Shown: positions 1 through 12,985 of the stretch, piece after piece
Layout of the letters: the number at the start of each line of letters is the position of its first letter
How positions within the stretch are numbered: position 1 is the stretch's first letter
Origin: a virus
Taxonomy: Duplodnaviria > Heunggongvirae > Uroviricota > Caudoviricetes
DNA length: 12,985 nt
Reading direction: 5' to 3' (one strand)
Virus record (IMG/VR): IMGVR_UViG_2645727562_000001
Coordinates: 1 to 12,985 of that record
Position numbers and translations under genes: made by a program
The notes under the pieces: model-generated
Database searches by the model: none
Told to the model about the DNA's origin: nothing
Seen by the model: only the letters and a program-made list of their open reading frames with translations

Positions 1-50
1 CGCTCGACGCTTTCTTTCTGGTATTGAAGGGATTGGGATGGGCTAAGCAT
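1..50 (-). CDS. Start of a further minus-strand nin-region ORF that runs off the left edge
   Basis: ATG (reverse complement of 48-50) overlaps the stop of the upstream ORF at 50-52, continuing the chain of overlapping minus-strand genes. Only about 16 codons are visible. Confidence 0.2.
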   Translation of the reverse strand, partial: MLSPSQSLQYQKESVE

Positions 51-415
51 TATTGGATTCTCTGCATCATGAGAAAGACAATCATGGCGGCGCGGAGGGG
101 ATTTTCATGTATAGCTCGCTTAGATTTACAGTAGGCCACACCGCGTGCACCCCACTCGTCTTCATCGAGATTGATAATGCTAATCCTGTATTTTTCAATA
201 ATCGGCCATGAGTCTGCTGGGTTTGCGCATGGGTTAAAGGATCCGCGCTCAACTTCTACTTCAACTGCGTCTCCGTTTACAATGTCTCCCTCAAATGAGA
301 CAAACACCATATCGCCATTCTCACCTTCTTTGTAATCCGGTGATCCGTTATGAATGGCTTCGAATACCGCCACGTTAATTTCAAAATCACTTAACTGTGA
401 ATAATCCATTGTCAT
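50..415 (-). CDS. Hypothetical nin-region protein, about 121 aa
   Basis: Six-frame ORF 50..451. The internal ATG at 413-415 overlaps the NinE-like stop in an ATGA arrangement, so the likely start is Met13 of the listed ORF (MTMDYSQ...). No family recognised. Confidence 0.5.
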
Positions 416-588
416 TTCCTCGCACGATGTCTTAGCCACCGGATATCCCACAGGTGAGCCGTGTAGTTGAAGGTTTTTACGTCAGATTCTTTTGGGATTG
501 GCTTGCGTTTATTTCTGGAGCGTTTCGTTGGAAGGTATTTGCAGTTTTCGCAGATGATGTCGGTGAAACTTCGTCGCTGTCGCCTCAT
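412..588 (-). CDS. ninE: NinE-like small basic protein, 58 aa
   Basis: Internal Met of ORF 412..678 ([23 protein letters not shown]...[12 protein letters not shown]). Its ATG overlaps the methyltransferase stop (ATGA at 585-588). Position downstream of ninB and the Arg-rich, Cys-containing composition fit a NinE-family protein; assignment is from memory. Confidence 0.45.
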
Positions 589-1112
589 GCCGCCCTCCTG
601 ACGCCCTGCCCGATCGCCATCAATGCCGCTTTGGATACGGTAGTAAACATCCGTCGAGGACTGATGAACGGTCGCCAAATCAGCAGCATGGAGCCTTTGC
701 TGTTTCCCTTCTTCTCCAGCCCTGTCGATGGTTCGATAAAATTAATCCGTCCATCAGTGATAATGCGAACTTCGTCGACACTCTCCAGAGCCTTGCTGAA
801 CCATCCGACTGACATATCCTCTGGCACAAGCATAACTACCGTCTGTCGCTGTTGTATGCACTGCTCAGCGGCTTTTTCCACCCACGGCCTGATATTGCTG
901 TACGGTGGGTTATTCCAGATTGCACCGTGGCTTACCCACTCAGAATTGAGCGCGTCGTCGGCCTCAGTTAGCCAGTGAGCACACAGAGCATTTTTGTCGC
1001 TCGCTGCCGAATCCAGCCAGAATCCAAACTCAATATCCAGTGCATCAAAAAGCCAAAGCGGCGTTTGCCAGCAGTCCTTGTCGTGTGCCGGCGTATTTGA
1101 TTTGATAGTCAT
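585..1112 (-). CDS. Phage orphan DNA N6-adenine methyltransferase (Dam-like)
   Basis: ORF 585..1139 contains the NPPY catalytic motif (..[10 protein letters not shown]..) and a DCWQTP N-terminal motif typical of phage Dam-type N6-adenine methyltransferases. Likely start is ATG 1110-1112 (MTIKSN...), overlapping the ninB stop as ATGA. No restriction enzyme partner is adjacent. Confidence 0.7.
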
Positions 1113-1555
1113 GCAGCCTTCCCTTTTCGTTGTGACCATTCATACTCTCGCCGGGAGTCATCACTCCACCGCACGTTGCGCTCTGAGCCGAACCAAAACA
1201 TGATTTCGATAAGCTCAGTCATGCTGGCCTTTCGCATTTTGCTGGTACGCACGCCAAGCATGACAACGCCACCGTCGATACCAGGAACACTTCGTTGCTC
1301 CAGTTTTTTGGTCTTAAGCCACAGGGCAGTGAACAGGTCTTTCCAGTCTTCCGGTGCCAGCCGTTGACCATGCCATAGCACCTGACGCGAAACATCGTTC
1401 AGCATCGGCCACATACGGTCATTCTGCGCTTTGCTGCGTTTGGGTTCTTTAAGGTGGACTTCGTGGGGTGACTTGTCGTCGATGGGAAGTGAGAGTATTG
1501 CGTCTATGGCGTTATTTCTGATTGCTTCGTTGCGAAGCATGTATATTTGCTTCAT
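1109..1555 (-). CDS. ninB: NinB recombination protein
   Basis: 148-aa product aligns with recalled lambda NinB over the whole length, e.g. DVSRQVLWHGQRLAPEDWK against DVSRQVEWHGRWLDAESWK, and a matching C-terminus [19 protein letters not shown]. Confidence 0.75.
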   Translation of the reverse strand: MKQIYMLRNEAIRNNAIDAILSLPIDDKSPHEVHLKEPKRSKAQNDRMWPMLNDVSRQVLWHGQRLAPEDWKDLFTALWLKTKKLEQRSVPGIDGGVVMLGVRTSKMRKASMTELIEIMFWFGSERNVRWSDDSRREYEWSQRKGKAA

Positions 1556-1841
1556 CGAAATTCTTCTCTTTAATTCCAGCGGATCTGATAGCTTTCATTA
1601 CTGCAATTACCGTTTTGTCTCTCCCATCCTCATAACCCATCGCATAAGCACCTTCTTCACCATCTTTCCAAAAGTCGTCATTCGATTCGGGCCAGTCGAT
1701 ATCCAGTTCAATAGCTGCTCGCGATGCCTGCCATGCCTCCCATGCAATCTCGACCTTGATGTGCATAATCTTCATCACGTCACTTGAAACGTGATATTTG
1801 TTTTTAAACCATTCTTCAAACTGCTTTCTTGATTCGTCCAT
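1512..1841 (-). CDS. Hypothetical acidic protein, 109 aa
   Basis: Intact ORF with a GAGGG Shine-Dalgarno-like motif upstream of the ATG. Its 3' end overlaps the ninB start. No family recognised. Confidence 0.5.
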   Translation of the reverse strand: MDESRKQFEEWFKNKYHVSSDVMKIMHIKVEIAWEAWQASRAAIELDIDWPESNDDFWKDGEEGAYAMGYEDGRDKTVIAVMKAIRSAGIKEKNFDEANIHASQRSNQK

Positions 1842-1858
1842 CGATACTTACCCTCAGT

Positions 1859-2065
1859 TCAACTCACAAAACGCCACGCCATTTTTGCTACAGCGACAGG
1901 CATAACACCGATAATCACCCAGACAAATGCAGCGCCAAACAACGTATACCATGGGTCTTTACCGTCATTCACAAGACGAATGTAGCTATTCAGAACAATA
2001 AAAAACGTCAGAAGAATCCATCCAACGCCAACGCATTTGAATGCGACGAGCATAAACTCAGCCAC
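1859..2065 (-). CDS. Small hydrophobic protein with two predicted transmembrane helices, 64-68 aa
   Basis: ORF 1859..2065 has two long hydrophobic stretches (GVGWILLTFFIVL and FGAAFVWVIIGVMPVAV). GGGGGAGAG lies just upstream of a GTG at 2065; an in-frame ATG is at 2053. It begins immediately after the replication-operon terminator. Confidence 0.4.
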   Translation of the reverse strand: MAEFMLVAFKCVGVGWILLTFFIVLNSYIRLVNDGKDPWYTLFGAAFVWVIIGVMPVAVAKMAWRFVS

Positions 2066-2074
2066 GATTTACTC

Positions 2075-2113
2075 TCCCCCAAATAAAAAGGCCTGCGATT
2101 ACCAGCAGGCCTG
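2075..2113 (-). terminator. Rho-independent terminator ending the O-helicase operon
   Basis: Perfect 8-bp inverted repeat AGGCCTGC...GCAGGCCT (2089-2112). On the minus-strand transcript it is followed by UUUUUAUUU (reverse complement of 2080-2088), about 30 nt after the helicase stop. Confidence 0.5.
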
Positions 2114-2140
2114 TTATTAGCTCAGTGATGTAGATGGTCA

Positions 2141-3577
2141 TCAGAATCCTCCTTTCTTCTTGGACTGCGGTTCCTCGCGTTCACGGCGGCGCATTTCAGC
2201 AGACTGTTGGTCTGTGTCATAAATAGCGCCATTTGCCTGAATGCAATACACCGTGCCGGTATTGCCATGACGATTGAGGCGAAGGATTAGTTCGGTTTCA
2301 CCAGGAGGAACGCTGTCATCAAAAGCGCCTTCACGATGGATCCCCACCCAATAATCGCAATCCTGTTCAATCTGCCCTGTATCTCGTGAGTCACTTGGTA
2401 ATGGGCGTTTATTGGTTCGGCTTTCCAGTGCGCGGTTAAGCTGTGTCAGAAGCACAACAACGCAATCAAGCTCTTTGGCAAGGTTCTTCAGTCCTTTGGT
2501 GATCATGCCGTAAGCAAGGTCGTTGCGATCGGCCTTCTCAGCGGTCATTAGTGTCAGGTAATCGACCAGAATCATGCCAACACATCCTTTTTCTCGCTTG
2601 ATTCGACGGCTTTCGCTGACGATTTGAGCCAGAGATAATCCCGGCGTGTCGTCGATGTAAAGCAGGTCGATTTCACTCAAGCGATTGGCTGTTTCGATCG
2701 CCCTGTTGAAGTCACCATCGTAATCACCCTGATAGCCGTCATCAGCGTCATTTGTCGCCAGAAGGTAAAAAATATTGGGGTTAACACCTGACTTTTGCCC
2801 TACCAGTTTTTCCAGTATCTGGTCACCTGGCATTTCAAGGCTGAACATCAGAGCGGGCTTTTTCTCATGCACTGCGCAGTTGATTGCCATCTGGCTGTAT
2901 AGCGTCGTTTTCCCCATCTTAGGGCGAGCGCCAATGACAAACAAAGAGCCTTTCACCAGACCTTTCGGTGACAGCATCCTGTCCAGCGATGGGATCCCTG
3001 TGCTCATTCCTCGTTGTTCGCCTGACGGGTCAAATCGCTTCTCAAGGTCGCTAACCCAGTCTTCCATGACCTCACCAAATGAGCGAAGGCCGCGACGCGA
3101 TCCGGTTTTTGCATGGTCTGTCAGTTGCGTGAAAATCGCCTGAATAGCTTCGTACTTCTGCGTTGCAGTCATTCCGTTGCGGGAATAGAGCAATTCCGTC
3201 GCTTCAGTCATGCGGTTGATGGCGTAGCGTTCCATTGCGGTTTCACGAACCTGCATTGCATAGGCAACGATGTTTGCTGCGCTTGGCGTGTTCTTTGCGA
3301 TCTCAGCGATATAAGCAAAACCGCCAACAGACTCCGTTAACGATTTACGCTCCAGTTCATCGAAAAGCGTCAGGCCATCTACTGGCTTTTGCTCCCGGTG
3401 CATTATGGTTATTTCTTCGAAAAGGATTTTGTGTGGCCGGCTGTAAAATGAATCAGGCTTCAGCATCGCCAGAACTTTCTGGACGCGCTCACTGCTGTCA
3501 TCATCCAGAAGCAATCCACCAATCACCGCCTGCTCTGCCTCGATGCTATGGGGCGGCGCATAAAAATTATCGGTCAT
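2141..3577 (-). CDS. DnaB-family replicative DNA helicase
   Basis: Product of about 479 aa with an N-terminal DnaB-like domain (IEAEQAVIGGLLLD), Walker A (GARPKMGKTT) and a Walker B-like motif (ILVDYLTLM). ATG at 3575-3577 with GAGGGTG upstream overlaps the O-like gene 3' end; the six-frame track extends to a GTG at 3592. Confidence 0.85.
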   Translation of the reverse strand: MTDNFYAPPHSIEAEQAVIGGLLLDDDSSERVQKVLAMLKPDSFYSRPHKILFEEITIMHREQKPVDGLTLFDELERKSLTESVGGFAYIAEIAKNTPSAANIVAYAMQVRETAMERYAINRMTEATELLYSRNGMTATQKYEAIQAIFTQLTDHAKTGSRRGLRSFGEVMEDWVSDLEKRFDPSGEQRGMSTGIPSLDRMLSPKGLVKGSLFVIGARPKMGKTTLYSQMAINCAVHEKKPALMFSLEMPGDQILEKLVGQKSGVNPNIFYLLATNDADDGYQGDYDGDFNRAIETANRLSEIDLLYIDDTPGLSLAQIVSESRRIKREKGCVGMILVDYLTLMTAEKADRNDLAYGMITKGLKNLAKELDCVVVLLTQLNRALESRTNKRPLPSDSRDTGQIEQDCDYWVGIHREGAFDDSVPPGETELILRLNRHGNTGTVYCIQANGAIYDTDQQSAEMRRREREEPQSKKKGGF

Positions 3578-4532
3578 CGTGTTCACCCTCACGAACTTTC
3601 AGGTAGGTATTATCGTTAAGCAGGAAATCAAATCCCTTTTTGTGCCAGACGGTTCCGCGTTGATGGTTTGGGCGCTCTTCGAACATCCATCGGCAATTTT
3701 CGCCTACGTAGCTCAAATAATTTCTCCAGTCCTGCATCGTGAACCCATGCCCGTCAAGCTGGCGGGTTATCACTCCGGCTTTGCGCCAGAACGTTCGGAT
3801 CTGGTTTTTACGCTTGTCATTCAGTGCGCGGATTCTTGGCGCTTCAGGAAGGATTTCGTGGTAAGCATCGACAACATCCTGACAGCTAACGGAAGGTTTT
3901 TTCTTGTCAGACTTTTTGTCTGCTGCGGTACTCTCTAATACGTCAGTATTAGAGATAATATTATTATATTCTTTATCTGTGGTAATTTGCTGGTAATCTG
4001 CTGGTACAGTATTGCTTGCAGGCATTGGTATTGCTGGCTTTGAGGTGGTAATTTGCTGGTAATCTGCTGGTACAGTATTGCTTGCAGGCATTGGTATTGC
4101 TGGCTTTGAGGTGGTAATTTGCTGGTAATCTGCTGGTACAAAATTTGACTGATAATCGTCATATTTCTCTACCGAGAAAACTGAGAATTTACCGTGTGAA
4201 ACCCAGTCAATCATGCCGAGTTTTTTGAACTTTCTAAGCAGGTACTGAACGCGATCTGGTTTGAGTCCTGTTTCAAACGCCAGAGAGTTTCTACCGCCAA
4301 GTAGCTTCCCTCTGCCTACCAGAATTTCTCCTGCGTCAGTCATTACATACTCAGGCGTATGCTTTGCTTTGAGGATTAAGTGAACCCACAGATGCGCAGC
4401 TTCTGCGTCCTTGTAAAACGGCACATCCATAATTTTACGGTGCAGCAAGGCATACCCCTTACCGCTGCTTTGATGCGGTTGTTGTAGCCTTCTGGCCTCT
4501 CTGGCTTCGGCTAGATTAGATATGTTACTCAT
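3567..4532 (-). CDS. Replication initiator, lambda O-like, with internal tandem 22-aa repeats
   Basis: 321-aa ORF in the O position, immediately upstream of and overlapping the helicase gene. The central region has three copies of [22 protein letters not shown] encoded by the 66-bp DNA repeats. The conserved-looking C-terminal domain fits phage replication initiators. Confidence 0.7.
3979..4139. repeat. About 2.4 tandem copies of a 66-bp unit containing TGCTGGTA-type sub-repeats; putative replication origin iterons
   Basis: Exact 66-bp periodicity (copies begin at 3979, 4045 and 4111). Each unit holds several TGCTGGTA-like short repeats. A strongly AT-rich stretch lies next to it at 3935-3978. 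Iterons followed by an AT-rich region inside the initiator gene is the lambda ori architecture. Confidence 0.6.
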
Positions 4533-4671
4533 GACCTTTCTCCTTCTGCATCAGCTTCACTTTTTCCAACTCAGCCCGGAATCGACCAGGCTGCTTGAAG
4601 CTGGACAGGAAGCGATCACGTAGTATGTGTTTGTGAATTTTGTCCTGGTAAGGACTGAGTTGTTTTGTCAT
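4525..4671 (-). CDS. Unlisted small ORF between cII and the O-like gene, 48 aa, basic
   Basis: Reverse-complement reading gives AGGAG, six nt, then ATG (4669-4671): [48 protein letters not shown]. Its stop overlaps the O-like start codon. Below the length cutoff of the supplied track. Confidence 0.3.
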
Positions 4672-4703
4672 AATTACTCCTGTGGATTGATCCAGTAATT
4701 CCC

Positions 4704-5000
4704 TCAGAATTGCATATCAATTTGCTTAAAATCCTCGGTGGCGGCCGGGGATTTTTTCTTTGTGATTTCATCAAGCGCATACTTAAAAGCCCTGCTAATC
4801 GGACTGATGTCTGATGCCATTCCGAAAGCACACAAGACCGAAGCAATAAATCTCCAGTCCGTTCTGCTTATCTTCGATTCATGACAGCCAATCATCTTTG
4901 CCAGACCGCGCTGGGTAAGTGTTGATAGGTTGATGAGTAAATCTGTTTCTGCGCGATCAACGTCACGCTGTGATAGTTTGCTGTAACTTGTTCGTTCCAT
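4704..5000 (-). CDS. cII: CII-like transcriptional activator (divergent from lambda CII)
   Basis: 98 aa in the position downstream of cro and nutR. C-terminus [18 protein letters not shown] resembles lambda CII NKKRPAATERSEQIQMEF, and a central HTH-like segment is present. Confidence 0.7.
4741..4770 (+). ncRNA. 3' terminator hairpin of a putative OOP-like antisense RNA overlapping the cII 3' end
   Basis: Plus-strand hairpin ATCCTCGGTGGCGGCCGGGGAT (4741-4762) followed by TTTTTTCTTT, antisense to the last roughly 20 codons of cII. This is the position and form of the lambda OOP RNA terminator. The 5' end and promoter are not confidently placed. Confidence 0.4.
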
Positions 5001-5085
5001 TTCTTAAGATTTCCAATAGTGAATAGTTAGTTGAAAGGTATGCGTGGAAACGCATATGGCCTTAGTTGGTCAGATATCTTGGGAC

Positions 5086-5131
5086 TCGCTTTGTCAGCGA
5101 CGTAGGACGAATGTCCATTGTGAAAATAGCG
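5086..5131 (-). promoter_or_regulatory. nutR: boxA-like CGCTATTTT and boxB hairpin with GACAA loop
   Basis: On the minus-strand transcript just after the cro stop: CGCTATTTT (reverse complement of 5123-5131) lies where lambda has boxA CGCTCTTAC, then UCGCU-GACAA-AGCGA (reverse complement of 5086-5100). The same hairpin recurs at nutL. The loop matches the P22-type boxB as recalled. Confidence 0.5.
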
Positions 5132-5138
5132 GTGTTAC

Positions 5139-5348
<210 letters not shown>

Positions 5349-5363
5349 TTAGTACATGCAACC

Positions 5364-5392
5364 ATTATCACCGCTAGAGGTAAAATAGTCAA
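5364..5392 (-). promoter_or_regulatory. pR promoter driving cro
   Basis: Minus-strand -35 TTGACT (reverse complement of 5387-5392) and -10 GATAAT (reverse complement of 5364-5369), overlapping OR1/OR2 exactly as in lambda. Confidence 0.85.
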
Positions 5393-5404
5393 CACGCACG
5401 GTGT

Positions 5405-5429
<25 letters not shown>
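5366..5429. promoter_or_regulatory. Right operator OR1-OR2-OR3, lambda type
   Basis: Three 17-bp operator half-palindromes: OR1 5366-5382 (TATCACCGCTAGAGGTA), OR2 5390-5406 (CAACACGCACGGTGTTA), OR3 5413-5429 (TATCCCTTGCGGTGATA). OR2 and OR3 match lambda; OR1 differs at one position from the canonical sequence as recalled. Confidence 0.9.
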
Positions 5430-6153
<724 letters not shown>

Positions 6154-6160
6154 CACGTAA

Positions 6161-6598
6161 ATGATTAAAGAACGTATTTCTTATATCATTCCGATTGCGA
6201 TGGATGAAGGCAACCCAGTAACTCCAGTTCTTATCTATGAAATGGATAAAGACTCCCATGAAGTGGATCTATCATTTGGCGCTTTTTTTATCGGCCTTAA
6301 GGCTACAAAAAAATATTCCATAGGCATTGAGGTTTTCAATGCTCAAGAAATACCGATACCAATTGACACAAAACTGTACTCCAACCATAAGTTTTTTACG
6401 GTAGCAGAAGCCAACGATGGAGAAACCATCGTATCAACTTCTATGAGAATTAACTTCCCAAGGGTGAAAATTATCAAGCCTGGGATATTCGAAGTTAGAG
6501 CATCACTGGTTAATCCTGATAAAGGCGAAGTAATTGATGTAAAAAGTTCGTTTTTTGACGTGAAGATAACAGGATCAGTTCGCGATGAGTTTAGATAA
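6161..6598 (+). CDS. Unknown soluble protein, 145 aa; first gene of the cargo cassette in the rexA position
   Basis: ORF starts 8 nt after the cI stop codon. Markedly AT-rich compared with cI. No transmembrane segment or recognisable catalytic motif; alternating hydrophobic pattern suggests a beta-rich fold. The downstream gene overlaps it by 14 nt. Confidence 0.6.
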   Translation: MIKERISYIIPIAMDEGNPVTPVLIYEMDKDSHEVDLSFGAFFIGLKATKKYSIGIEVFNAQEIPIPIDTKLYSNHKFFTVAEANDGETIVSTSMRINFPRVKIIKPGIFEVRASLVNPDKGEVIDVKSSFFDVKITGSVRDEFR

Positions 6599-6956
6599 CA
6601 AGGTTGCTCAGCTTCGTCCAAATCAAAACATATCTCGCCCAATTGGACACTATTCCACTGATGATGCATACTCACGGCATGGTGGAGGAAACGGCGGAGG
6701 TAACATGCTTGAGGCTAGAGTTGCAAAGCTAGAGTCTGATGTTGAATACATCAAGCGCGATCTCGCTGAAGTAAAGTCAGATATAAAATCTGTAGATTCT
6801 CGTCTGTCAGGTATTGAGACAAGCATTAGCTCAGCAAAAATCACCATCAAGGCATCTGCGGTCGTTGTCAGTTTCGTGTTCGCATTTTGCGCCTACATTT
6901 TTGGAAGTTATGTTTCCAAAATCCTTGATGCCTTAAACGGACTCGTTCTTAAGTAA
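6585..6956 (+). CDS. Coiled-coil protein with a single C-terminal transmembrane helix (XhlA-like architecture); second cargo gene in the rexB position
   Basis: The 123-aa ORF overlaps the upstream gene. An alternative ATG at 6705 is preceded by GGAGG at a 4-nt spacing and would give an 83-aa product starting MLEARVAKLESD. Features: Gly-rich low-complexity N-terminus (HGGGNGGGN), heptad-like coiled coil (LEARVAKLESDVEYIKRDLAEVKSDIKSVDSRLSGIE), then a hydrophobic anchor (ASAVVVSFVFAFCAYIFGSYV). Confidence 0.6.
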   Translation: MSLDNKVAQLRPNQNISRPIGHYSTDDAYSRHGGGNGGGNMLEARVAKLESDVEYIKRDLAEVKSDIKSVDSRLSGIETSISSAKITIKASAVVVSFVFAFCAYIFGSYVSKILDALNGLVLK

Positions 6957-6962
6957 CACACA

Positions 6963-6990
6963 ACCCGGCCTCAGCGCCGGGTTTTCTTTG
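6963..6990 (+). terminator. Rho-independent terminator of the cI-cargo operon (tImm-like)
   Basis: Stem ACCCGGC / GCCGGGT with a 6-nt loop, followed by TTTCTTTG, 7 nt after the cargo stop codon. The flanking sequence resembles the lambda region between rexB and OL as recalled. Confidence 0.6.
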
Positions 6991-7146
6991 CCTCACGATC
7001 CCCTTCACCCAATAACACATAACCAATTGTATTTATTTGAAAATTAATAGATACAACTCACTAAACATCGCAATTCAGATCTCTCGATCACCTCCCAAGC
7101 CACACACCCCTGCAAAAAAATAAATCTATATAAAAAACATACAGAT

Positions 7147-7209
7147 AACCATCTGCGGTGATAAATTATCTCTGGCGGTGTTGACATAAATACCACTGGC
7201 GGTGATACT
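7147..7209 (+). promoter_or_regulatory. Left operator OL3-OL2-OL1 with pL promoter, lambda type
   Basis: OL3 7147-7163 (AACCATCTGCGGTGATA), OL2 7167-7183 (TATCTCTGGCGGTGTTG), OL1 7191-7207 (TACCACTGGCGGTGATA). pL -35 TTGACA 7181-7186 and -10 GATACT 7204-7209. Matches the canonical lambda pL/OL sequence; pL reads rightward in this window. Confidence 0.92.
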
Positions 7210-7277
7210 AAACACATCAGCAGGACGCACTACTCACCAGGGCGGTGAATATACAACGATTCGAATATGAATCTACG

Positions 7278-7292
7278 GCGCTGACAAAGCGC
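7278..7292 (+). promoter_or_regulatory. nutL boxB hairpin (GCGCU-GACAA-AGCGC)
   Basis: Perfect 5-bp stem with 5-nt GACAA loop about 60 nt downstream of the pL start, matching the hairpin at nutR and the P22-type boxB as recalled. No convincing boxA is seen upstream. Confidence 0.55.
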
Positions 7293-7302
7293 AATAACCA
7301 AA

Positions 7303-7445
7303 GTGAACTTTGGGGTGTGGTGAAGGGTTCATGGACGGGAATATGTCGCACGTAAAGCGGCGAGGCCTGCGGGACTATTGCCGAATTGAAGTAGGCCGAA
7401 ACAGGTCGAAATGGGTCTCCCACCTACCACACCACCAAAGTTCAT
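7303..7445 (+). promoter_or_regulatory. Long-range stem in the N leader, adjacent to the N ribosome-binding site (RNase III-site analogue)
   Basis: TGAACTTTGGGGTGTGGTG (7303-7322) is complementary to CACCACACCACCAAAGTTCA (about 7425-7444) with one bulge, enclosing about 100 nt. The N Shine-Dalgarno GGAGG (7448-7452) lies directly 3' of the stem. Lambda has an analogous GGGGTGTGTG / CACACACCACC leader stem. Confidence 0.5.
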
Positions 7446-7457
7446 CAGGAGGTCTAT

Positions 7458-7841
7458 ATGACACGCAGAACTCAGTTCAAAGGCAATTCACGTTCTCGTC
7501 GTCGTGAGCGTTTAAAGGCAAAGGCATTAGCTAACGGCGTACTGGCCCGCGAAGAAGCAATAAGTTCAGAAGTATTACACCGCCCTACTCTAAGCAGAGC
7601 GCAGATTCAGGCTAAAGGTACTCACGAAACGCCTGAGCGCATAGAAGACGCTAAGCCAATTAAGTTCATGGCACAGGACGTGATCTGGCAACAGAAAGAA
7701 TACAGACGCAATCTGGAGAGAGCGGCCATTGTGTACGCGAATGAGTTTGGGCATAGGCAACCAGAAACTGGTGTATGTCTTCCAAATGTAGCTCTTTACG
7801 CGGCAGGCTACAGGAAATCAAAACAACTGACGGCGAGGTAA
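7458..7841 (+). CDS. N: N-family transcription antiterminator, non-lambda type
   Basis: 127-aa protein directly downstream of pL and nutL with GGAGG Shine-Dalgarno. N-terminal arginine-rich motif (GNSRSRRRERLKAKALA). C-terminus LPNVALYAAGYRKSKQLTAR resembles the P22 N-like (gp24) C-terminus as recalled. Not similar to lambda N. Confidence 0.85.
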   Translation: MTRRTQFKGNSRSRRRERLKAKALANGVLAREEAISSEVLHRPTLSRAQIQAKGTHETPERIEDAKPIKFMAQDVIWQQKEYRRNLERAAIVYANEFGHRQPETGVCLPNVALYAAGYRKSKQLTAR

Positions 7842-7843
7842 TT

Positions 7844-8236
7844 ATGGGTCAGGAAGAAAAATATGAGCTTAAAAAGCTCATTGAAGAAGACGCCATAGAA
7901 GAAATTGCAGCATTAACAACAGCTATAAATAATATTAGGTATGCGCTAAATACGCTTATCTCCTCATGCGACAAAAATAGCAGGGAATTTTTGATACTTG
8001 GCGCAGCTCTAGGAATAGTTGATGCGGCAACGCTTCACCTAATTACTCATGACGATATTCTTATTGAGCCGTATGAAACATTACTGCTTGTCAGGCAAAA
8101 AATGGCTGATGCCGCAGCAAATGGAGACCTTCAACTTTACATCGACTTAAGGAAAGTATTAAGGCGAATGGTCAGAACTGAAGGAGATATCCCACTGAGC
8201 GATGCTAAACAAGGCATACAAGCAAAGCTGGAATGA
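7844..8236 (+). CDS. Hypothetical helical protein, 130 aa, AT-rich, immediately downstream of N
   Basis: ATG at 7844, 2 nt after the N stop, preceded by GAGG (MGQEEKYELKKLIEE...). The supplied ORF 7775..8236 overlaps N in another frame, so the shorter start is preferred. AT-rich codon usage. No family recognised. Confidence 0.55.
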   Translation: MGQEEKYELKKLIEEDAIEEIAALTTAINNIRYALNTLISSCDKNSREFLILGAALGIVDAATLHLITHDDILIEPYETLLLVRQKMADAAANGDLQLYIDLRKVLRRMVRTEGDIPLSDAKQGIQAKLE

Positions 8237-8296
8237 CCATTATCCTGATGAAGTATCGAAAGCACAGTCAGCAATTAGCAAAGCTCTTGGGGAAGA

Positions 8297-8457
8297 ATGA
8301 TGAATAAGAAATACATTGTTGAAGTTATAGAGCGAGAAACGAAAGAAGTAATCAAACATTTCGAATTTGATAATTATAGAAAACCTGACCGCGTAGAAGA
8401 AGGATTGTTGCGACAAAGTAATCTCGAAAAATTTGATGTTGTCATGCGATGCGAATA
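8297..8457 (+). CDS. Unlisted small ORF, 53 aa
   Basis: GGGGAAGA then ATGATG at 8297: MMNKKYIVEVIERETKEVIKHFEFDNYRKPDRVEEGLLRQSNLEKFDVVMRCE. AT-rich. Below the track length cutoff. Confidence 0.35.
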
Positions 8458-8551
8458 AGCGCCTATAGCAGATTTACGAGTCTGCTATGTGAGCAATGTC
8501 GCTCGTAACTAAACAGGAGCCGACTTGTTCTGATTATTGGAAATCTTCTTT

Positions 8552-8578
8552 GCCCTCCAGTGTGAGGGCCTTTTTATA
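8552..8578 (+). terminator. Rho-independent terminator within the pL operon (tL1-like)
   Basis: Stem GCCCTC / GAGGGC with a 6-nt loop (8552-8569) followed by CTTTTTAT, lying between the small post-N genes and the cIII-like gene. Presumably read through by N-modified polymerase. Confidence 0.55.
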
Positions 8579-8641
8579 TGCATACCAATAACGCTTCACT
8601 CGAGGCGTTTTCGTTATGCAATCAAACAGAAGGAGCATCCT

Positions 8642-8812
8642 ATGCAACAGTTCGCTATTGCAGGGGCGGCATCGGTTCGCCCTTTCAACCCGATTTTATC
8701 GGTGCAGCATTCACGAAAAAATATTTTAACCGGAGCAGACTTTAAACAACCTCGCGTTAAGAGCTTGCTGGATCGTCTTGTTGAGTTTCTGAATCAAAAG
8801 GTACAGCCATGA
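8642..8812 (+). CDS. cIII: CIII-like protein (putative FtsH inhibitor), 56 aa
   Basis: Internal start of ORF 8537..8812 with AGGAG 7 nt upstream; the listed N-terminal extension spans the terminator. N-terminus MQQFAIAG resembles lambda CIII MQYAIAG, and there is an amphipathic segment (KSLLDRLVEFLNQ). Similarity beyond the N-terminus is weak. Confidence 0.5.
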   Translation: MQQFAIAGAASVRPFNPILSVQHSRKNILTGADFKQPRVKSLLDRLVEFLNQKVQP

Positions 8813-8973
8813 AAAAACCAACTTACGAGGAACTGGAAGAAGCCCTGAAAGAGCTTAGAAGAATGGCTTTCGCCAGACGCACTAACTCTCACAACTGCGG
8901 CCCATTTCAGTACTCTGATTTATGCGAGGACATCATTGAGGTAACTCAACTGATTAAGGTCGTTAAGCAATGA
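8809..8973 (+). CDS. Unlisted small ORF, 54 aa, in the kil position
   Basis: ATGA overlap with the cIII-like stop. Product MKKPTYEELEEALKELRRMAFARRTNSHNCGPFQYSDLCEDIIEVTQLIKVVKQ. No similarity to lambda Kil as recalled. Confidence 0.35.
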   Translation: MKKPTYEELEEALKELRRMAFARRTNSHNCGPFQYSDLCEDIIEVTQLIKVVKQ

Positions 8974-9077
8974 GCATTGCGGATACATGGTCAGACGAAG
9001 AATTCATTCGTCAGATGAAAGAAATGCTCAATCAGCACAAAGAACAGGAGAAAGATGATGATTCTGACTCTGAATGA
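8970..9077 (+). CDS. Unlisted very small acidic ORF, 35 aa
   Basis: ATGA overlap with the previous ORF (MSIADTWSDEEFIRQMKEMLNQHKEQEKDDDSDSE). Its 3' end overlaps the next gene's start region. Weak support. Confidence 0.2.
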   Translation: MSIADTWSDEEFIRQMKEMLNQHKEQEKDDDSDSE

Positions 9078-9366
9078 TAAGCGTGAAATATCGCAAATCA
9101 TCGCAAGTTTTACCGATGAAGATTACGAACGAATCAACAGTGAAGTTGATCGTCTCTGCAAACGTTGCGACCCAATAAGCGAAATGCTTCGCTCATATAA
9201 ACCAGATGAACACACTAAGGACGCTATCGACTGGCTGGAAGATGATGACTGTAACTATCAGGAAAAAGCCGCTGAATGGTTCTGGGATGCAATAACCGAA
9301 AGAGTTAAGGCTGAATATGCCTTCGCAATATTCAAACGCAGACATATTTATGGAGAAGCTGCATGA
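9055..9366 (+). CDS. Hypothetical protein, 103 aa
   Basis: AGGAG 5 nt upstream of ATGATG at 9055. Its stop overlaps the RecT start as ATGA. No family recognised. Confidence 0.5.
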   Translation: MMILTLNDKREISQIIASFTDEDYERINSEVDRLCKRCDPISEMLRSYKPDEHTKDAIDWLEDDDCNYQEKAAEWFWDAITERVKAEYAFAIFKRRHIYGEAA

Positions 9367-10265
9367 GCAATATCGTTGAATTCGTTAAACAGCAAGAGCA
9401 GTTATTCTGCGGAGCATTGACTGAACAGACGGTGACATGGGCTAAGGAAAGCCAGTTTGCAATTCAGTATTTCCAGAAAAACGATTACCTGGCTAAAACA
9501 GCACTGGCAAATCCAACCAGCGCACAGAACGCCATCATCAATGTTGCGGCGATCGGCATCACCTTAAACCCGGCCAGCAAACTGGCTTATCTGGTTCCTC
9601 GCGACGGCATGGTGTGCCTTGATATCAGTTACATGGGATTACTTCATCTTGCGCAATCGACAGGATCAATTAAGTGGGGGCAATGCAAACTGGTGTACTC
9701 AAACGACACCTATGAATCAAATGGCCTTGATTCAGCACCAACCCACAAATACAACGCATTTGGTGAGCGAGGCTCTATTGTTGGAGGTTATTGCACGGTT
9801 AAAACAGCAGATGGTGACTACCTGACTGAAGAAATGAGTCTGGCAGAAATTAAAGCTGTGGAAGCAACGAGCAAGGCAAAGAATGGACCGTGGAAAACAT
9901 TCTGGGAAGAGATGGCGCGTAAAACAATAGTTAAACGCGCCAGCAAATACTGGCCTAAAGCCCAGCGACTGGATAATGCCATTCACCTTCTTAACGAAGA
10001 TGAAGGTATGCATCAGGAACCAGTTATGCCGCACAAATCAGAGGAAGATATCCGCGAAGATGAACGGAAACGCCAGCAGGAAATAATGGATAAAGCACAA
10101 CTTCTTTGCGATGAAATGGCTCAGGCAGAAAACATGGATGATTTGAAGCGATATTTTGCAGAAGCATATCGCCTGACATCTGGAATGAAATTGCAGCAGA
10201 ACGTACAAGCCATTTACATAGAATGCAAAGCGAAGCTGGAGGTTGCCAGTGAGCAAACTGTATGA
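9363..10265 (+). CDS. recT: RecT-family single-strand annealing recombinase
   Basis: 300-aa product. C-terminal segment NGPWKTFWEEMARKTIVKRASKYWP aligns with Rac RecT NGPWVTHWEEMAKKTAIRRLFKYLP as recalled. Occupies the bet position of the pL operon. Confidence 0.8.
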   Translation: MSNIVEFVKQQEQLFCGALTEQTVTWAKESQFAIQYFQKNDYLAKTALANPTSAQNAIINVAAIGITLNPASKLAYLVPRDGMVCLDISYMGLLHLAQSTGSIKWGQCKLVYSNDTYESNGLDSAPTHKYNAFGERGSIVGGYCTVKTADGDYLTEEMSLAEIKAVEATSKAKNGPWKTFWEEMARKTIVKRASKYWPKAQRLDNAIHLLNEDEGMHQEPVMPHKSEEDIREDERKRQQEIMDKAQLLCDEMAQAENMDDLKRYFAEAYRLTSGMKLQQNVQAIYIECKAKLEVASEQTV

Positions 10266-10731
10266 AATTGCCAATGAATACGCAAAATTGATGGATTCAG
10301 ATTTAGAGCCAGAGATGATTGCTGACACAATAGAAGGCATGGAAGGAGAATTTACCGATAAAATAGAGCAACTTCTTGCCATTATTAAAAATGAATCTGG
10401 TTATGCTGAACGCCTCAAGGACGAGGCAAAGTCACTGAATGAACGAGCAGCAGTAATTCAAAATAAGATTGATAGCATTATGGCATATATAGCGTCATCG
10501 CTTGAAATGGTTGGCAAGAAAAAGATTCGAGCAGGTATTCACCAGGTAACAATCCGCAAACCGTCAGAAACTGTAGAAATCATCGACTCAAGCGCCATTC
10601 CTCCTGAATACGTTGAGTTTGAAACGACAATTAAAGCCGACAAGTTGGCAATCAAACACCAACTAAAAGCAGGAATAAATATCCCCGGCGCTCAACTCAA
10701 AGTTGGGAAACCTTCACTTCTTATCAAATAA
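10249..10731 (+). CDS. Coiled-coil protein, possibly siphovirus Gp157-like, about 160 aa
   Basis: ORF 10243..10731. GGAGG (10237-10241) precedes a GTG at 10249, which is the preferred start; the first in-frame ATG is at 10291. Family assignment is tentative and from memory. Confidence 0.45.
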   Translation: MSKLYEIANEYAKLMDSDLEPEMIADTIEGMEGEFTDKIEQLLAIIKNESGYAERLKDEAKSLNERAAVIQNKIDSIMAYIASSLEMVGKKKIRAGIHQVTIRKPSETVEIIDSSAIPPEYVEFETTIKADKLAIKHQLKAGINIPGAQLKVGKPSLLIK

Positions 10732-10742
10732 CGGTATCGCCT

Positions 10743-11057
10743 ATGAAAAAGACTCCATGGGAGAAATGGGAAGTCGATTTCTTGCGCGAAGTAGCGGCGA
10801 CAATGCCAGTTGAAGTTATCGCTGAAAAACTGGAAAGGACTGAAAAAGCAGTTATGGCGAAAGCAACAAGGATTGGCGCTGACATTGTTAGCCGACTTCG
10901 TGGAAGACGCTGGACAAGAGCCGAAGTATCACTTTTCGGTAAGTTCTCCGCAGAAGAAATAGCAATTGCAACCTGCCGCTCAATTTATTCAGTAAGAGCT
11001 ATGCGATACAAGCTAAAAAAACTCGATGAAGAAAGAGCAGGCATACAAATAAATTAA
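10743..11057 (+). CDS. Hypothetical basic protein, 104 aa, with two similar helical half-repeats
   Basis: Intact ORF. Internal duplication-like pattern (W..W/E..L......E.IA......RT/S..A.......) suggests a tandem helix-turn-helix-like fold. Inference only. Confidence 0.45.
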   Translation: MKKTPWEKWEVDFLREVAATMPVEVIAEKLERTEKAVMAKATRIGADIVSRLRGRRWTRAEVSLFGKFSAEEIAIATCRSIYSVRAMRYKLKKLDEERAGIQIN

Positions 11058-11073
11058 CATGGAGTAATTAACA

Positions 11074-11355
11074 ATGAAGCTAAACATCGACCTCGGCAAA
11101 TACGTTATTACCGGAACCAAATACGATCTGATTCTTAGCGAAAGAGGAATTATCAAAGAAGGCGAGAATGCAGGGAAAGAAACACTAAGCCGTATCGGTT
11201 ATTACAGCAAGTTTGAGCATCTGGTTAAAGAGTTATGCAACCGTGAAATCCTGTTATCTCAGGCGCAGACGCTACAGGATATTCAGCAGCATATCGAGAC
11301 TTTAGGTGTGTCACTTAGCATGGCTATTGACCAGTTCGTGGAGAGTAAATCATGA
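11074..11355 (+). CDS. Hypothetical protein, 93 aa
   Basis: Intact ORF with GGAG-like motif upstream. Its stop overlaps the next small ORF as ATGA. Confidence 0.5.
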
Positions 11356-11516
11356 GAGGTCTTGCATACAATCCCGGCATTCTTCCGGCAGAAATGATTA
11401 TTCGCCAACGCGTAAAGCCAATGCCATCGAGAGAGGAATTGCTTAAGAGAAATTCTTTTCCATCAGTGAATCAAAACAAATATCTGAATGCGATGTGGCG
11501 GAGTGGGAAGAAATGA
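11352..11516 (+). CDS. Unlisted small ORF, 54 aa
   Basis: ATGA overlap at both ends (start 11352, stop 11514-11516 overlapping the ATG at 11513): [54 protein letters not shown]. Confidence 0.3.
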
Positions 11517-11989
11517 AACAAATGTCACTAATTGAGATGGATGGATTTCTGAAAGGTAAATGCATCCCAAGTGATTTAAAGGTTAACGAAACAAACGCTG
11601 AATATCTGGTGCGTAAGTTCGGTGAACTTGAATCAAAACTAGAAACAGCGTTGCGTGAGTGTCGTTCTGCTGGAATCACGATTGATAACCTTGAGGCTAA
11701 ATGCGCGAAGATGGCTGCTGAAAATACCTCACTTAAGCAATCTGAGAAGGAATTTAATGACTTTTGTCGTGAGGAGTTTAGCGAATGGGAAGATGATGTT
11801 ACTGAAACCCCAGCCACCGATGCTTTTCTGGCTGAAGTACGGGCGCAGGCGTTTAATGACCTTTGCTCGGCGTTCGTTAAACACGCGAATCTCGCGGGAA
11901 TGGATGATGGTGAGCTAGTGAGGCTTAAATATGCGACGGACGCCCTGCTGCATTGTGCGGAACAGCTTCGCAAAGGAGTTCAGTCATGA
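11513..11989 (+). CDS. Hypothetical acidic helical protein, about 158 aa
   Basis: ORF 11495..11989. Preferred start is ATG 11513 ([12 protein letters not shown]...), overlapping the upstream stop. Its stop overlaps the next ATG. Confidence 0.5.
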
Positions 11990-12219
11990 GCATCCGAACT
12001 GAACATGGATTTGGTCCTTCAACGGTCGAAGTCGAATGGCTTGATGATTGCCCTAAGTGCCAGCACGGCAAAGCCAAGGTAACAGGATGGTCGGTAACCA
12101 AAGATTCTTTGTGGGCGGGTGATGAGGCCGTTTGTTCCAAATGCGGTCACAAAGGTGAAATCGATGCTGATGGAGAGAATGCCTGGGTGGAATGGGACGA
12201 AATCGAGGAGGCACAATGA
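11986..12219 (+). CDS. Small zinc-ribbon protein, 77 aa (two CxxC pairs)
   Basis: Internal ATG of ORF 11953..12219 overlapping the upstream stop (ATGA). Contains CPKC and CSKC motifs about 30 residues apart. Confidence 0.5.
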   Translation: MSIRTEHGFGPSTVEVEWLDDCPKCQHGKAKVTGWSVTKDSLWAGDEAVCSKCGHKGEIDADGENAWVEWDEIEEAQ

Positions 12220-12971
12220 GCAACATCGACATCGACACACTGGCGCTGCGTGAGGCGGCAGAACGTGCAATTCCGGCAATGGAACGCCTGTTAATGTTGC
12301 CAGCTGATGATGATTTGTTAACTGAACAGGAACTTAAGGATTACGGTGTGGATATTGATGCGCTCAACGCCTTCAAATTTCTGACCGGACCAGAAACCGT
12401 GTTGGCACTACTGGATGAACGGGAAAGAAACCAGCAATACATCAAACGCCGCGACCAGGAGAACGAGGATATTGCGCTAACGGTAGGGAAGCTGAGAGTT
12501 GAGCTTGAGGAAGTAAAACAACACGCTGAAGAATTATCCGAAACCAAGGCTGTTCGTAACCAATGGCGGCCAGATCTTTGCCCAATAACCGGACGTGCAT
12601 TTTTCATGTGGATTGAGCATCCAACATTGGGAAATGTGCCGACATATGGTGGCCCATTAGATAGTTACACCATTCCAACAAAGGACGGTGACGGTGAGTT
12701 TTCATGTGAGCGTTACGATCATGATTTTGGCGGTTGGGTAGAAAGCGAATGTCTTGGGTTATATCTGATTGATGATAGAGAACAATGCAGGGTCTACGAA
12801 CTGGAGGAACGCGTTAAGGAACTGGATGCTCGGGAAATATCGCTCCCGGAACGTAGCAGCATGCTTCATCGAACAGATTTTCACGATGATTACCAAACGG
12901 TAATGGCATACAAAGTTTCTGAAGTCATCGATGCAATCCGCGCTACTGGCATTCGCATCAAAGGAGAGTGA
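12216..12971 (+). CDS. Ead/Ea22-like family protein, about 251 aa
   Basis: GAGGAGG precedes the ATG at 12216 (MSNIDIDTLALREAAE...), which overlaps the upstream stop. N-terminal coiled-coil and acidic composition fit the Ead/Ea22-like proteins common in enterobacterial lambdoid prophages; assignment is from memory. Confidence 0.5.
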   Translation: MSNIDIDTLALREAAERAIPAMERLLMLPADDDLLTEQELKDYGVDIDALNAFKFLTGPETVLALLDERERNQQYIKRRDQENEDIALTVGKLRVELEEVKQHAEELSETKAVRNQWRPDLCPITGRAFFMWIEHPTLGNVPTYGGPLDSYTIPTKDGDGEFSCERYDHDFGGWVESECLGLYLIDDREQCRVYELEERVKELDAREISLPERSSMLHRTDFHDDYQTVMAYKVSEVIDAIRATGIRIKGE

Positions 12972-12985
12972 TATGAGCGCTATAA

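Follow-up and report, generated by a model that had tools for sequence, protein, structure and literature searches.

The adenine methyltransferase M.EcoVT2Dam is introduced, in a methylome study of O111 STEC (Escherichia coli that produce Shiga toxin), as the 'orphan MTase' (methyltransferase) of prophage VT2-Sa, 'known to target 5'-GATC-3'' (PMC6602927, citing Radlinska & Bujnicki 2001), and VT-2 is also named among the phages with Dam-like genes (PMC7556043). In VT2-Sakai the gene is annotated dam and stands between ninB and ninE, and copies occur in 933W-type Stx1/Stx2 phages. In phage lambda, the nin chain lies between the replication genes and Q and is made up of non-essential genes set closely together, with ATGA stop/start overlaps at their junctions (PMC8022706); linkage of nin genes through ATGA is a trait ascribed to lambdoid phages in general (PMC8022706; Kroger & Hobom 1982; Cheng et al. 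1995). Here we describe a 12,985-nt stretch of DNA, positions 1 to 12,985 of virus record IMGVR_UViG_2645727562_000001 (hereafter the window), which is the early region of a lambdoid prophage and carries a phage N6-adenine DNA methyltransferase gene, dam, between ninB and ninE on the minus strand. This gene is very probably the dam of Stx/lambdoid phages, M.EcoVT2Dam: an orphan enzyme forming N6-methyladenine (m6A) in GATC, which would be made as a delayed-early product and would top up the methylation of phage DNA. Gene, product, reported target and arrangement are all catalogued already, and the locus is a further copy of a known enzyme in its usual place.

A methyltransferase identical to M.EcoVT2Dam

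The comparison with VT2-Sakai and other described systems centres on the following features.

1109..1555, minus strand: ninB (Orf-family recombination mediator), 148 residues; Pfam PF05772 (E 4e-48), PHROG 72 (NinB/Orf)
585..1112, minus strand: phage N6-adenine DNA methyltransferase (dam), 175 residues; PF05869, TIGR01712, PHROG 111
900..911, minus strand: codons of NPPY, catalytic motif IV (N68-P69-P70-Y71), as read from the sequence
412..588, minus strand: ninE, 58 residues; Pfam NinE PF05322 (E 4e-43), full length (1-58 of 58)

The family assignments of the genes in this block are far beyond chance. Specifically, the methyltransferase matches the Pfam family 'Dam' (PF05869) over residues 4-169 of 175 with an E-value of 6.4e-65 and 218.4 bits (cutoff 28.1), and the NCBIfam equivalog TIGR01712 (phage_N6A_met) with 265.9 bits (cutoff 97.05). 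The original prediction of an N6-adenine methyltransferase with an NPPY motif, made from the sequence alone, is thus confirmed by both profiles and by NPPY at residues 68-71. It had also placed the gene between ninB and a gene called only NinE-like; the position is correct, whereas the full-length PF05322 match makes the downstream neighbour a true NinE.

Over all 175 residues the protein has 100% identity to the VT2-Sakai Dam (BAA94133.1, dam/H0105), and the genes differ at six nucleotides, each change being synonymous. The motifs DxWxTP, LDxxA and NPPY occur in that order, with D13, W15, T17, P18, L33, D34, A37 and N68-P69-P70-Y71-S72 identical in the window protein, HP1 orf13 and T1 Dam. 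Among 38 homologues at 60-86% identity, 44 positions are invariant, NPPYS included, and the DxWxTP, LDxxA and NPPYS positions are invariant or nearly so. These comparisons show dam to be a gene apparently under purifying selection with its motifs intact. That the gene is inactive is very unlikely, because of this selection, the intact motifs and the identity to an enzyme reported to be active.

The resemblance to the M.EcoVT2Dam locus extends beyond the coding sequence. Both have the same ninB-dam-ninE order and the same 4-nt overlaps, and the DNA identity over 412-1555 is ~98%, as it also is for AU5Stx1. The differences are small within the block, where the window ninE is two codons shorter and ninB has five amino-acid differences, and larger around it: the window phage is another mosaic, with cI/cro of the lambda type and, within the window, no stx genes. 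More distant relatives are the Dam proteins of HP1 (orf13, an enzyme that has been cloned) and T1, which are likewise PF05869 members, 35% and 32% identical to the window protein, respectively, and share the DxWxTP, LDxxA and NPPYS motifs together with a conserved R-F-I..TG..N-K loop. Their settings differ; in HP1, dam is the last gene of the early operon, and in T1 it lies among replication genes. T1 Dam also carries a 48-residue N-terminal extension and a 14-residue insertion.

Two other open reading frames (ORFs) over the gene were set aside. A mechanical ORF list gives a 184-residue methyltransferase starting at 1139, which was rejected, as the ATGA start at 1112 is favoured by the alignments to the profiles and by annotation of VT2-Sakai and in RefSeq. 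A plus-strand ORF at 454-978 (174 residues), antisense to dam, is regarded as a mechanical shadow ORF.

Predicted fold and relation to other adenine methyltransferases

An AlphaFold2 (AF2) model of the methyltransferase (predicted local distance difference test, pLDDT, 85; predicted template modelling score, pTM, 0.85) has a single compact Rossmann-type core and a C-terminal helix. In the model, the first strand, which bears LDSAA (motif I), comes after a DxWQTP segment and a helix; the usual strands 2 and 3 are replaced by a short coil-rich stretch; and NPPY (motif IV) follows strand 4. The model has no separate target-recognition domain, and the protein is of the size of small single-domain enzymes (about 170-240 residues). 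The best candidate for the element that reads GATC would be a conserved loop at residues ~120-140 (GRIxFI..TG....GNxKG), the only long conserved loop, which the model places between the last core strands.

The best fold matches to the model in the PDB are to the methyltransferase core of PCIF1/CAPAM, the eukaryotic cap-specific m6A enzyme (template modelling score, TM, ~0.56; probability 1.0), which ranks ahead of all bacterial DNA methyltransferases in the fold search; such matches inform the class assignment and not the function. Similarity to E. coli Dam is weak (TM 0.34, E 0.012), and a sequence search of the PDB with the methyltransferase returned no relative, the best hit (SdiA, E 0.24) being noise. 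Iyer et al. include PCIF1 in their 'group 2, M.EcoKI/M.TaqI-like' class, whose marks are a helix at the N terminus and degeneracy of the elements around strand 3 (PMC4738411). As modelled, the window enzyme fits this class.

The original prediction had called the enzyme 'Dam-type', a label that holds for its function and its Pfam name and fails if it is taken to mean homology to the Dam proteins of E. coli and T4. Those alpha-class enzymes (PF02086) resemble the window protein in their reported product, G(m6A)TC, in their orphan status and in a Rossmann-type fold that binds S-adenosylmethionine (AdoMet). However, they have DPPY where the window protein has NPPY, and they contain an inserted target-recognition domain that is absent from the window protein, which is ~100 residues shorter. 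The window methyltransferase has no PF02086 match, PF05869 being its only Pfam hit at E <= 0.01, and the E. coli/T4 order of FxGxG, recognition domain and DPPY does not occur in it; NPPY follows the LDSAA strand by only ~30 residues. The GATC specificity common to the window enzyme and E. coli/T4 Dam is best read as convergent.

Kinship with the non-specific phage methyltransferases Hia5/Hin1523 and M.EcoGII was likewise considered and rejected, because those are alpha- and beta-class DPPY proteins of ~290-350 residues and the window protein matches PF05869 only. Hia5 (alpha; PMC3299994) and M.EcoGII (beta; PMC5778455) are similar to it in being m6A enzymes of phages or prophages that are orphans, are thought to serve anti-restriction and are silent in lysogens. 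They differ in their motif orders and in methylating nearly any adenine.

Target specificity

The original prediction had left the target of the enzyme open. This no longer stands, because the protein is identical to M.EcoVT2Dam, for which the O111 STEC study reports GATC (PMC6602927). Characterized relatives point the same way, and GATC specificity appears to be a family trait. M.Btr190III, which is related to the G(m6A)TC-modifying M.EcoT1Dam, methylates GATC as a cloned enzyme, with some off-target activity (PMC4996451). PamA, from an S. aureus prophage, has an NPPY site, and the cloned enzyme renders DNA sensitive to DpnI, by GATC methylation (PMC12435837); the phage that encodes it matches the window protein at 33.8% identity.

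Absence of a partner nuclease

That the methyltransferase has no partner restriction enzyme was part of the original prediction, and it held both in the window and in the related prophages examined. Searches of ~30 window ORFs against Pfam, PHROGs and PADLOC found no restriction-endonuclease or defence domains, and the best PADLOC match of the methyltransferase itself is 'oMTase' (orphan methyltransferase). No nuclease gene is annotated across 13 kb around dam in VT2-Sakai, or within the prophage in L005, a P22-like E. coli prophage of strain STK78-E that has the same ninB-dam-ninE-ninX-ninF chain. Beyond the L005 prophage integrase lies a type ISP enzyme, which is a self-contained fusion outside the phage. 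No cognate endonuclease gene is thus adjacent to the methyltransferase in the 13-kb window, VT2-Sakai or L005.

A restriction-modification or defence system could still be imagined if orf109, orf68, ninE or ninX were an unrecognised nuclease, several neighbours being without known function. However, these neighbours are conserved nin-region genes that are also present in phages without the methyltransferase (ninB-ninD-ninE in L004), PADLOC and nuclease models gave no match to any of them, and the methyltransferase of HP1 and T1 stands in very different contexts. The idea is already largely refuted, and we give it almost no weight.

Expected expression and proposed role

The minus strand of the window carries the rightward pR operon, in the transcription order cro, cII, DUF2740 gene, O-like gene, helicase gene, terminator, orf68, orf109, ninB, dam, ninE, ninX and ninF. 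The elements upstream of ninB are as follows.

5364..5392, minus strand: pR-like promoter (TTGACT-17-GATAAT), driving cro, cII, O, the helicase gene and the nin chain
5139-5339, minus strand: cro
4704-5000, minus strand: cII
3567-4532, minus strand: O-like initiator gene
2141-3592, minus strand: DnaB-like helicase gene
2089..2112, minus strand: strong intrinsic terminator, an 8-bp GC-rich stem AGGCCTGC...GCAGGCCT followed by TTTTTATTT, separating the helicase gene from the nin genes
1859-2065, minus strand: orf68, a conserved phage ORF; PHROG 1165
1512..1841, minus strand: orf109, PHROG 343; it overlaps the ninB start by 44 nt and forms the upstream link of the chain

The pR-like promoter is the sole sigma-70-like match within 1-5500, and the intrinsic terminator occupies the position of lambda tR2, where, by analogy, it would act as an N-suppressed terminator. 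The genes that follow are early-right operon genes placed after the replication genes and joined by ATGA overlaps, as in the nin region of lambdoid phages; Q, which comes after the nin chain in relatives (VT2-Sakai and L005), lies beyond this window. Because dam belongs to the cI-repressed pR operon, it would be expected to be silent in the lysogen, with cI repressing pR. Because it lies downstream of the terminator in the tR2 position, it would be expected to be an N-dependent, delayed-early product, made once N permits read-through of that tR2-like terminator. Both expectations derive from gene order.

Once made, the 175-residue single-domain AdoMet-dependent enzyme would convert the adenine of GATC to N6-methyladenine, with no cognate nuclease. 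In lambda and P22 virions the DNA is incompletely methylated by Dam, 'possibly because replication outstrips modification' (PMC8022706), and the phage enzyme may top up GATC methylation on fast-replicating phage DNA that host Dam leaves under-methylated. Two benefits could follow: (i) packaged genomes would be fully methylated and hence shielded from methylation-sensitive GATC nucleases in the next host, and (ii) completed methylation would remove MutH targets and so spare replication and recombination intermediates from MutH. The biological role is the least certain part of this account. Anti-restriction is plausible as the purpose of the gene; given a GATC target and a dam+ host, it would count mainly by completing methylation, or in dam-negative hosts.

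Alternative explanations

The same enzyme could instead act as an epigenetic regulator, expressed in lysogens or in a leaking subpopulation, whose extra GATC methylation would alter host or prophage expression or lysogen stability. There are precedents: PamA, a distant family member, rewires transcription and virulence in S. aureus by GATC methylation (PMC12435837), the putative Dam of Phi24B has been suggested to supplement host Dam in lysogens, and stable lysogeny of 933W needs host Dam (both PMC3342100). However, dam in the window belongs to the cI-repressed pR operon and sits behind a terminator. In addition, ~99.9% of chromosomal GATC sites in E. coli are already methylated (PMC6602927), which leaves little room for a regulatory effect, whereas S. 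aureus is without Dam; and a predicted Dam homolog in a prophage of another strain, not shown to be this gene, was seemingly inactive in the laboratory by reverse transcription PCR (PMC4659465). We therefore consider a regulatory role unlikely. Somewhat lower odds attach to an enzyme that does more than duplicate host Dam activity and, at lytic levels, has relaxed specificity (compare M.Btr190III) or acts on single-stranded or recombination intermediates, in which case the conserved linkage to ninB (Orf) might reflect a tie of methylation to phage recombination, or evasion of mismatch repair.

Relaxed specificity also underlies a broader form of anti-restriction, in which the enzyme at lytic levels would methylate many adenine contexts beyond GATC and guard against several restriction systems. 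The lack of a separate recognition domain speaks for this, the off-target methylation by M.Btr190III leaves some chance of relaxed specificity at high expression (PMC4996451), and non-specific phage adenine methyltransferases exist in other classes, as in Hia5 (PMC3299994) and M.EcoGII (PMC5778455). Against it, the identical protein is catalogued as GATC-specific (PMC6602927), and Hia5 and M.EcoGII, as larger alpha- and beta-class DPPY enzymes, are analogies and not relatives. Broad anti-restriction of this kind is in our view quite improbable.

The preferred account, an orphan GATC methyltransferase that completes methylation of phage DNA as a delayed-early product, itself has several points weighing against it. 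The GATC assignment reaches us through secondary citations and through REBASE-based statements in PMC6602927, and the off-target activity of M.Btr190III means, by analogy, that strict GATC specificity at high expression may not be guaranteed. The assignment of the recognition loop is a reading of a predicted model only, and the expression, coupling and activity of dam in this prophage are deduced from sequence. What phage Dam enzymes do 'is still not well understood' (PMC7556043), and their biological role is unproven. Finally, GATC is mildly depleted in the window, which would be unexpected if phage methylation had lifted all selection on GATC. Specifically, 35 sites are observed compared to 62.7 expected from trinucleotide frequencies (observed/expected, O/E, 0.56) or 49.8 from base composition, and no other of the 16 palindromic tetramers is as depleted, albeit in a small 13-kb sample. 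GATC-poor prophage regions were known previously (PMC6602927).

Gene junctions in the nin chain

The junctions of dam with its neighbours, and the genes that complete the chain, are listed below.

1109..1112, minus strand: ATGA overlap of the ninB stop and the methyltransferase start; minus-strand context GCTGCATGACTATC
1117..1123, minus strand: Shine-Dalgarno-like GGGAAGG within the ninB coding sequence, 4 nt upstream of the methyltransferase ATG; putative in function
585..588, minus strand: ATGA overlap of the methyltransferase stop and the ninE start; minus-strand context GGCGGCATGAGGCGA
593..598, minus strand: Shine-Dalgarno sequence AGGAGG within the methyltransferase coding sequence, 4 nt upstream of the ninE ATG; putative in function
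50..415, minus strand: ninX-family gene; Pfam PF10765 (E 8e-19), PHROG 444
1..50, minus strand: start of ninF, which runs off the window; NinF comes after NinX in the relative L005

The 4-nt ATGA overlap that the original prediction had reported at each junction of the methyltransferase is present at 1112-1109, where the TGA stop of ninB overlaps the methyltransferase ATG, and at 588-585. Through these overlaps and the internal Shine-Dalgarno sites, translation of dam is probably coupled to ninB upstream and to ninE downstream. A third ATGA joins ninE and ninX at 415-412 if ninX starts at the ATG at 415; the alternative start is the ATG at 409, which would leave a 2-nt gap, and RefSeq annotates a relative with the start at the ATG lying 6 nt later. 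The ninX stop and the ninF start overlap as TAATG at position 50.

Such overlaps are not particular to the nin chain, because the same -4 overlap occurs at 6 of the 27 tabulated gene junctions of the window and three of these lie in the leftward operon. The leftward-operon ATGA overlaps, on the plus strand, are at 8809-8812 (orf91/orf54), 9363-9366 (orf103/recT) and 11352-11355 (DUF5405/DUF2737).

Among database sequences, some ORFs unite two of the Pfam families, as Dam+NinE (P0002 and P0022) or NinB+Dam (P0013 and P0117), with 41 member sequences in one such cluster. Frameshifts or artefacts of gene calling at or close to the junctions presumably account for them.

Distribution and mosaicism

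The 528-nt dam gene is present at a minimum of 95% identity in 1566 of 5426 complete E. coli genomes (~29%), with up to five copies per genome. The block at 412-1555 is matched by 418 phage records, and tblastn finds a family member in 2134; the largest coverage of the whole window by any phage record is 46%. The ninB-ninE slot is a mosaic exchange point, holding dam in the window (412-1555) and in L005 (18408-19545), and ninD in L004 (18003-18762), in other respects the nearest genome match to the window. In lambda itself, the slot holds ninC-ninD. The window chain resembles that of lambda in its packing and in the terminator at the tR2 position that precedes it, and differs in the variable ninB-ninE cassette.

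Given a known identical enzyme, a gene carried by ~29% of E. coli genomes and textbook lambda-like overlaps, the finding is an ordinary one and the window adds little. Two questions concern the family as a whole and are not made newly testable by this locus: why so many temperate phages of dam+ hosts bring their own GATC methyltransferase, and how a 175-residue enzyme without a recognition domain reads GATC, the family having no experimental structure by the PDB sequence search.

Other features of the window

No Rfam family matched anywhere in the window at gathering thresholds. The product of orf68 looks hydrophobic and is probably a membrane protein. Within the O-like gene, a 66-bp tandem repeat at 3979-4145 (minus strand) comprises two exact copies and a partial third; it holds 11-bp sub-repeats, GGTAAT(T/C)TGCT, and encodes a repeated peptide. 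These are probably replication-origin iterons, and in VT2-Sakai ori iterons are annotated at the corresponding position. The immunity region, with cI, cro and pR, is of the lambda type. Downstream of cI (6161-6956, plus strand), a slot that holds rexA/rexB in lambda and in L004, the closest E. coli relative, is occupied by two overlapping ORFs, orf145 (PHROG 5893) and orf123 (PHROG 6136), the latter with weak XhlA/hemolysin-like matches. Together they may form an exclusion or moron cassette expressed in the lysogen.

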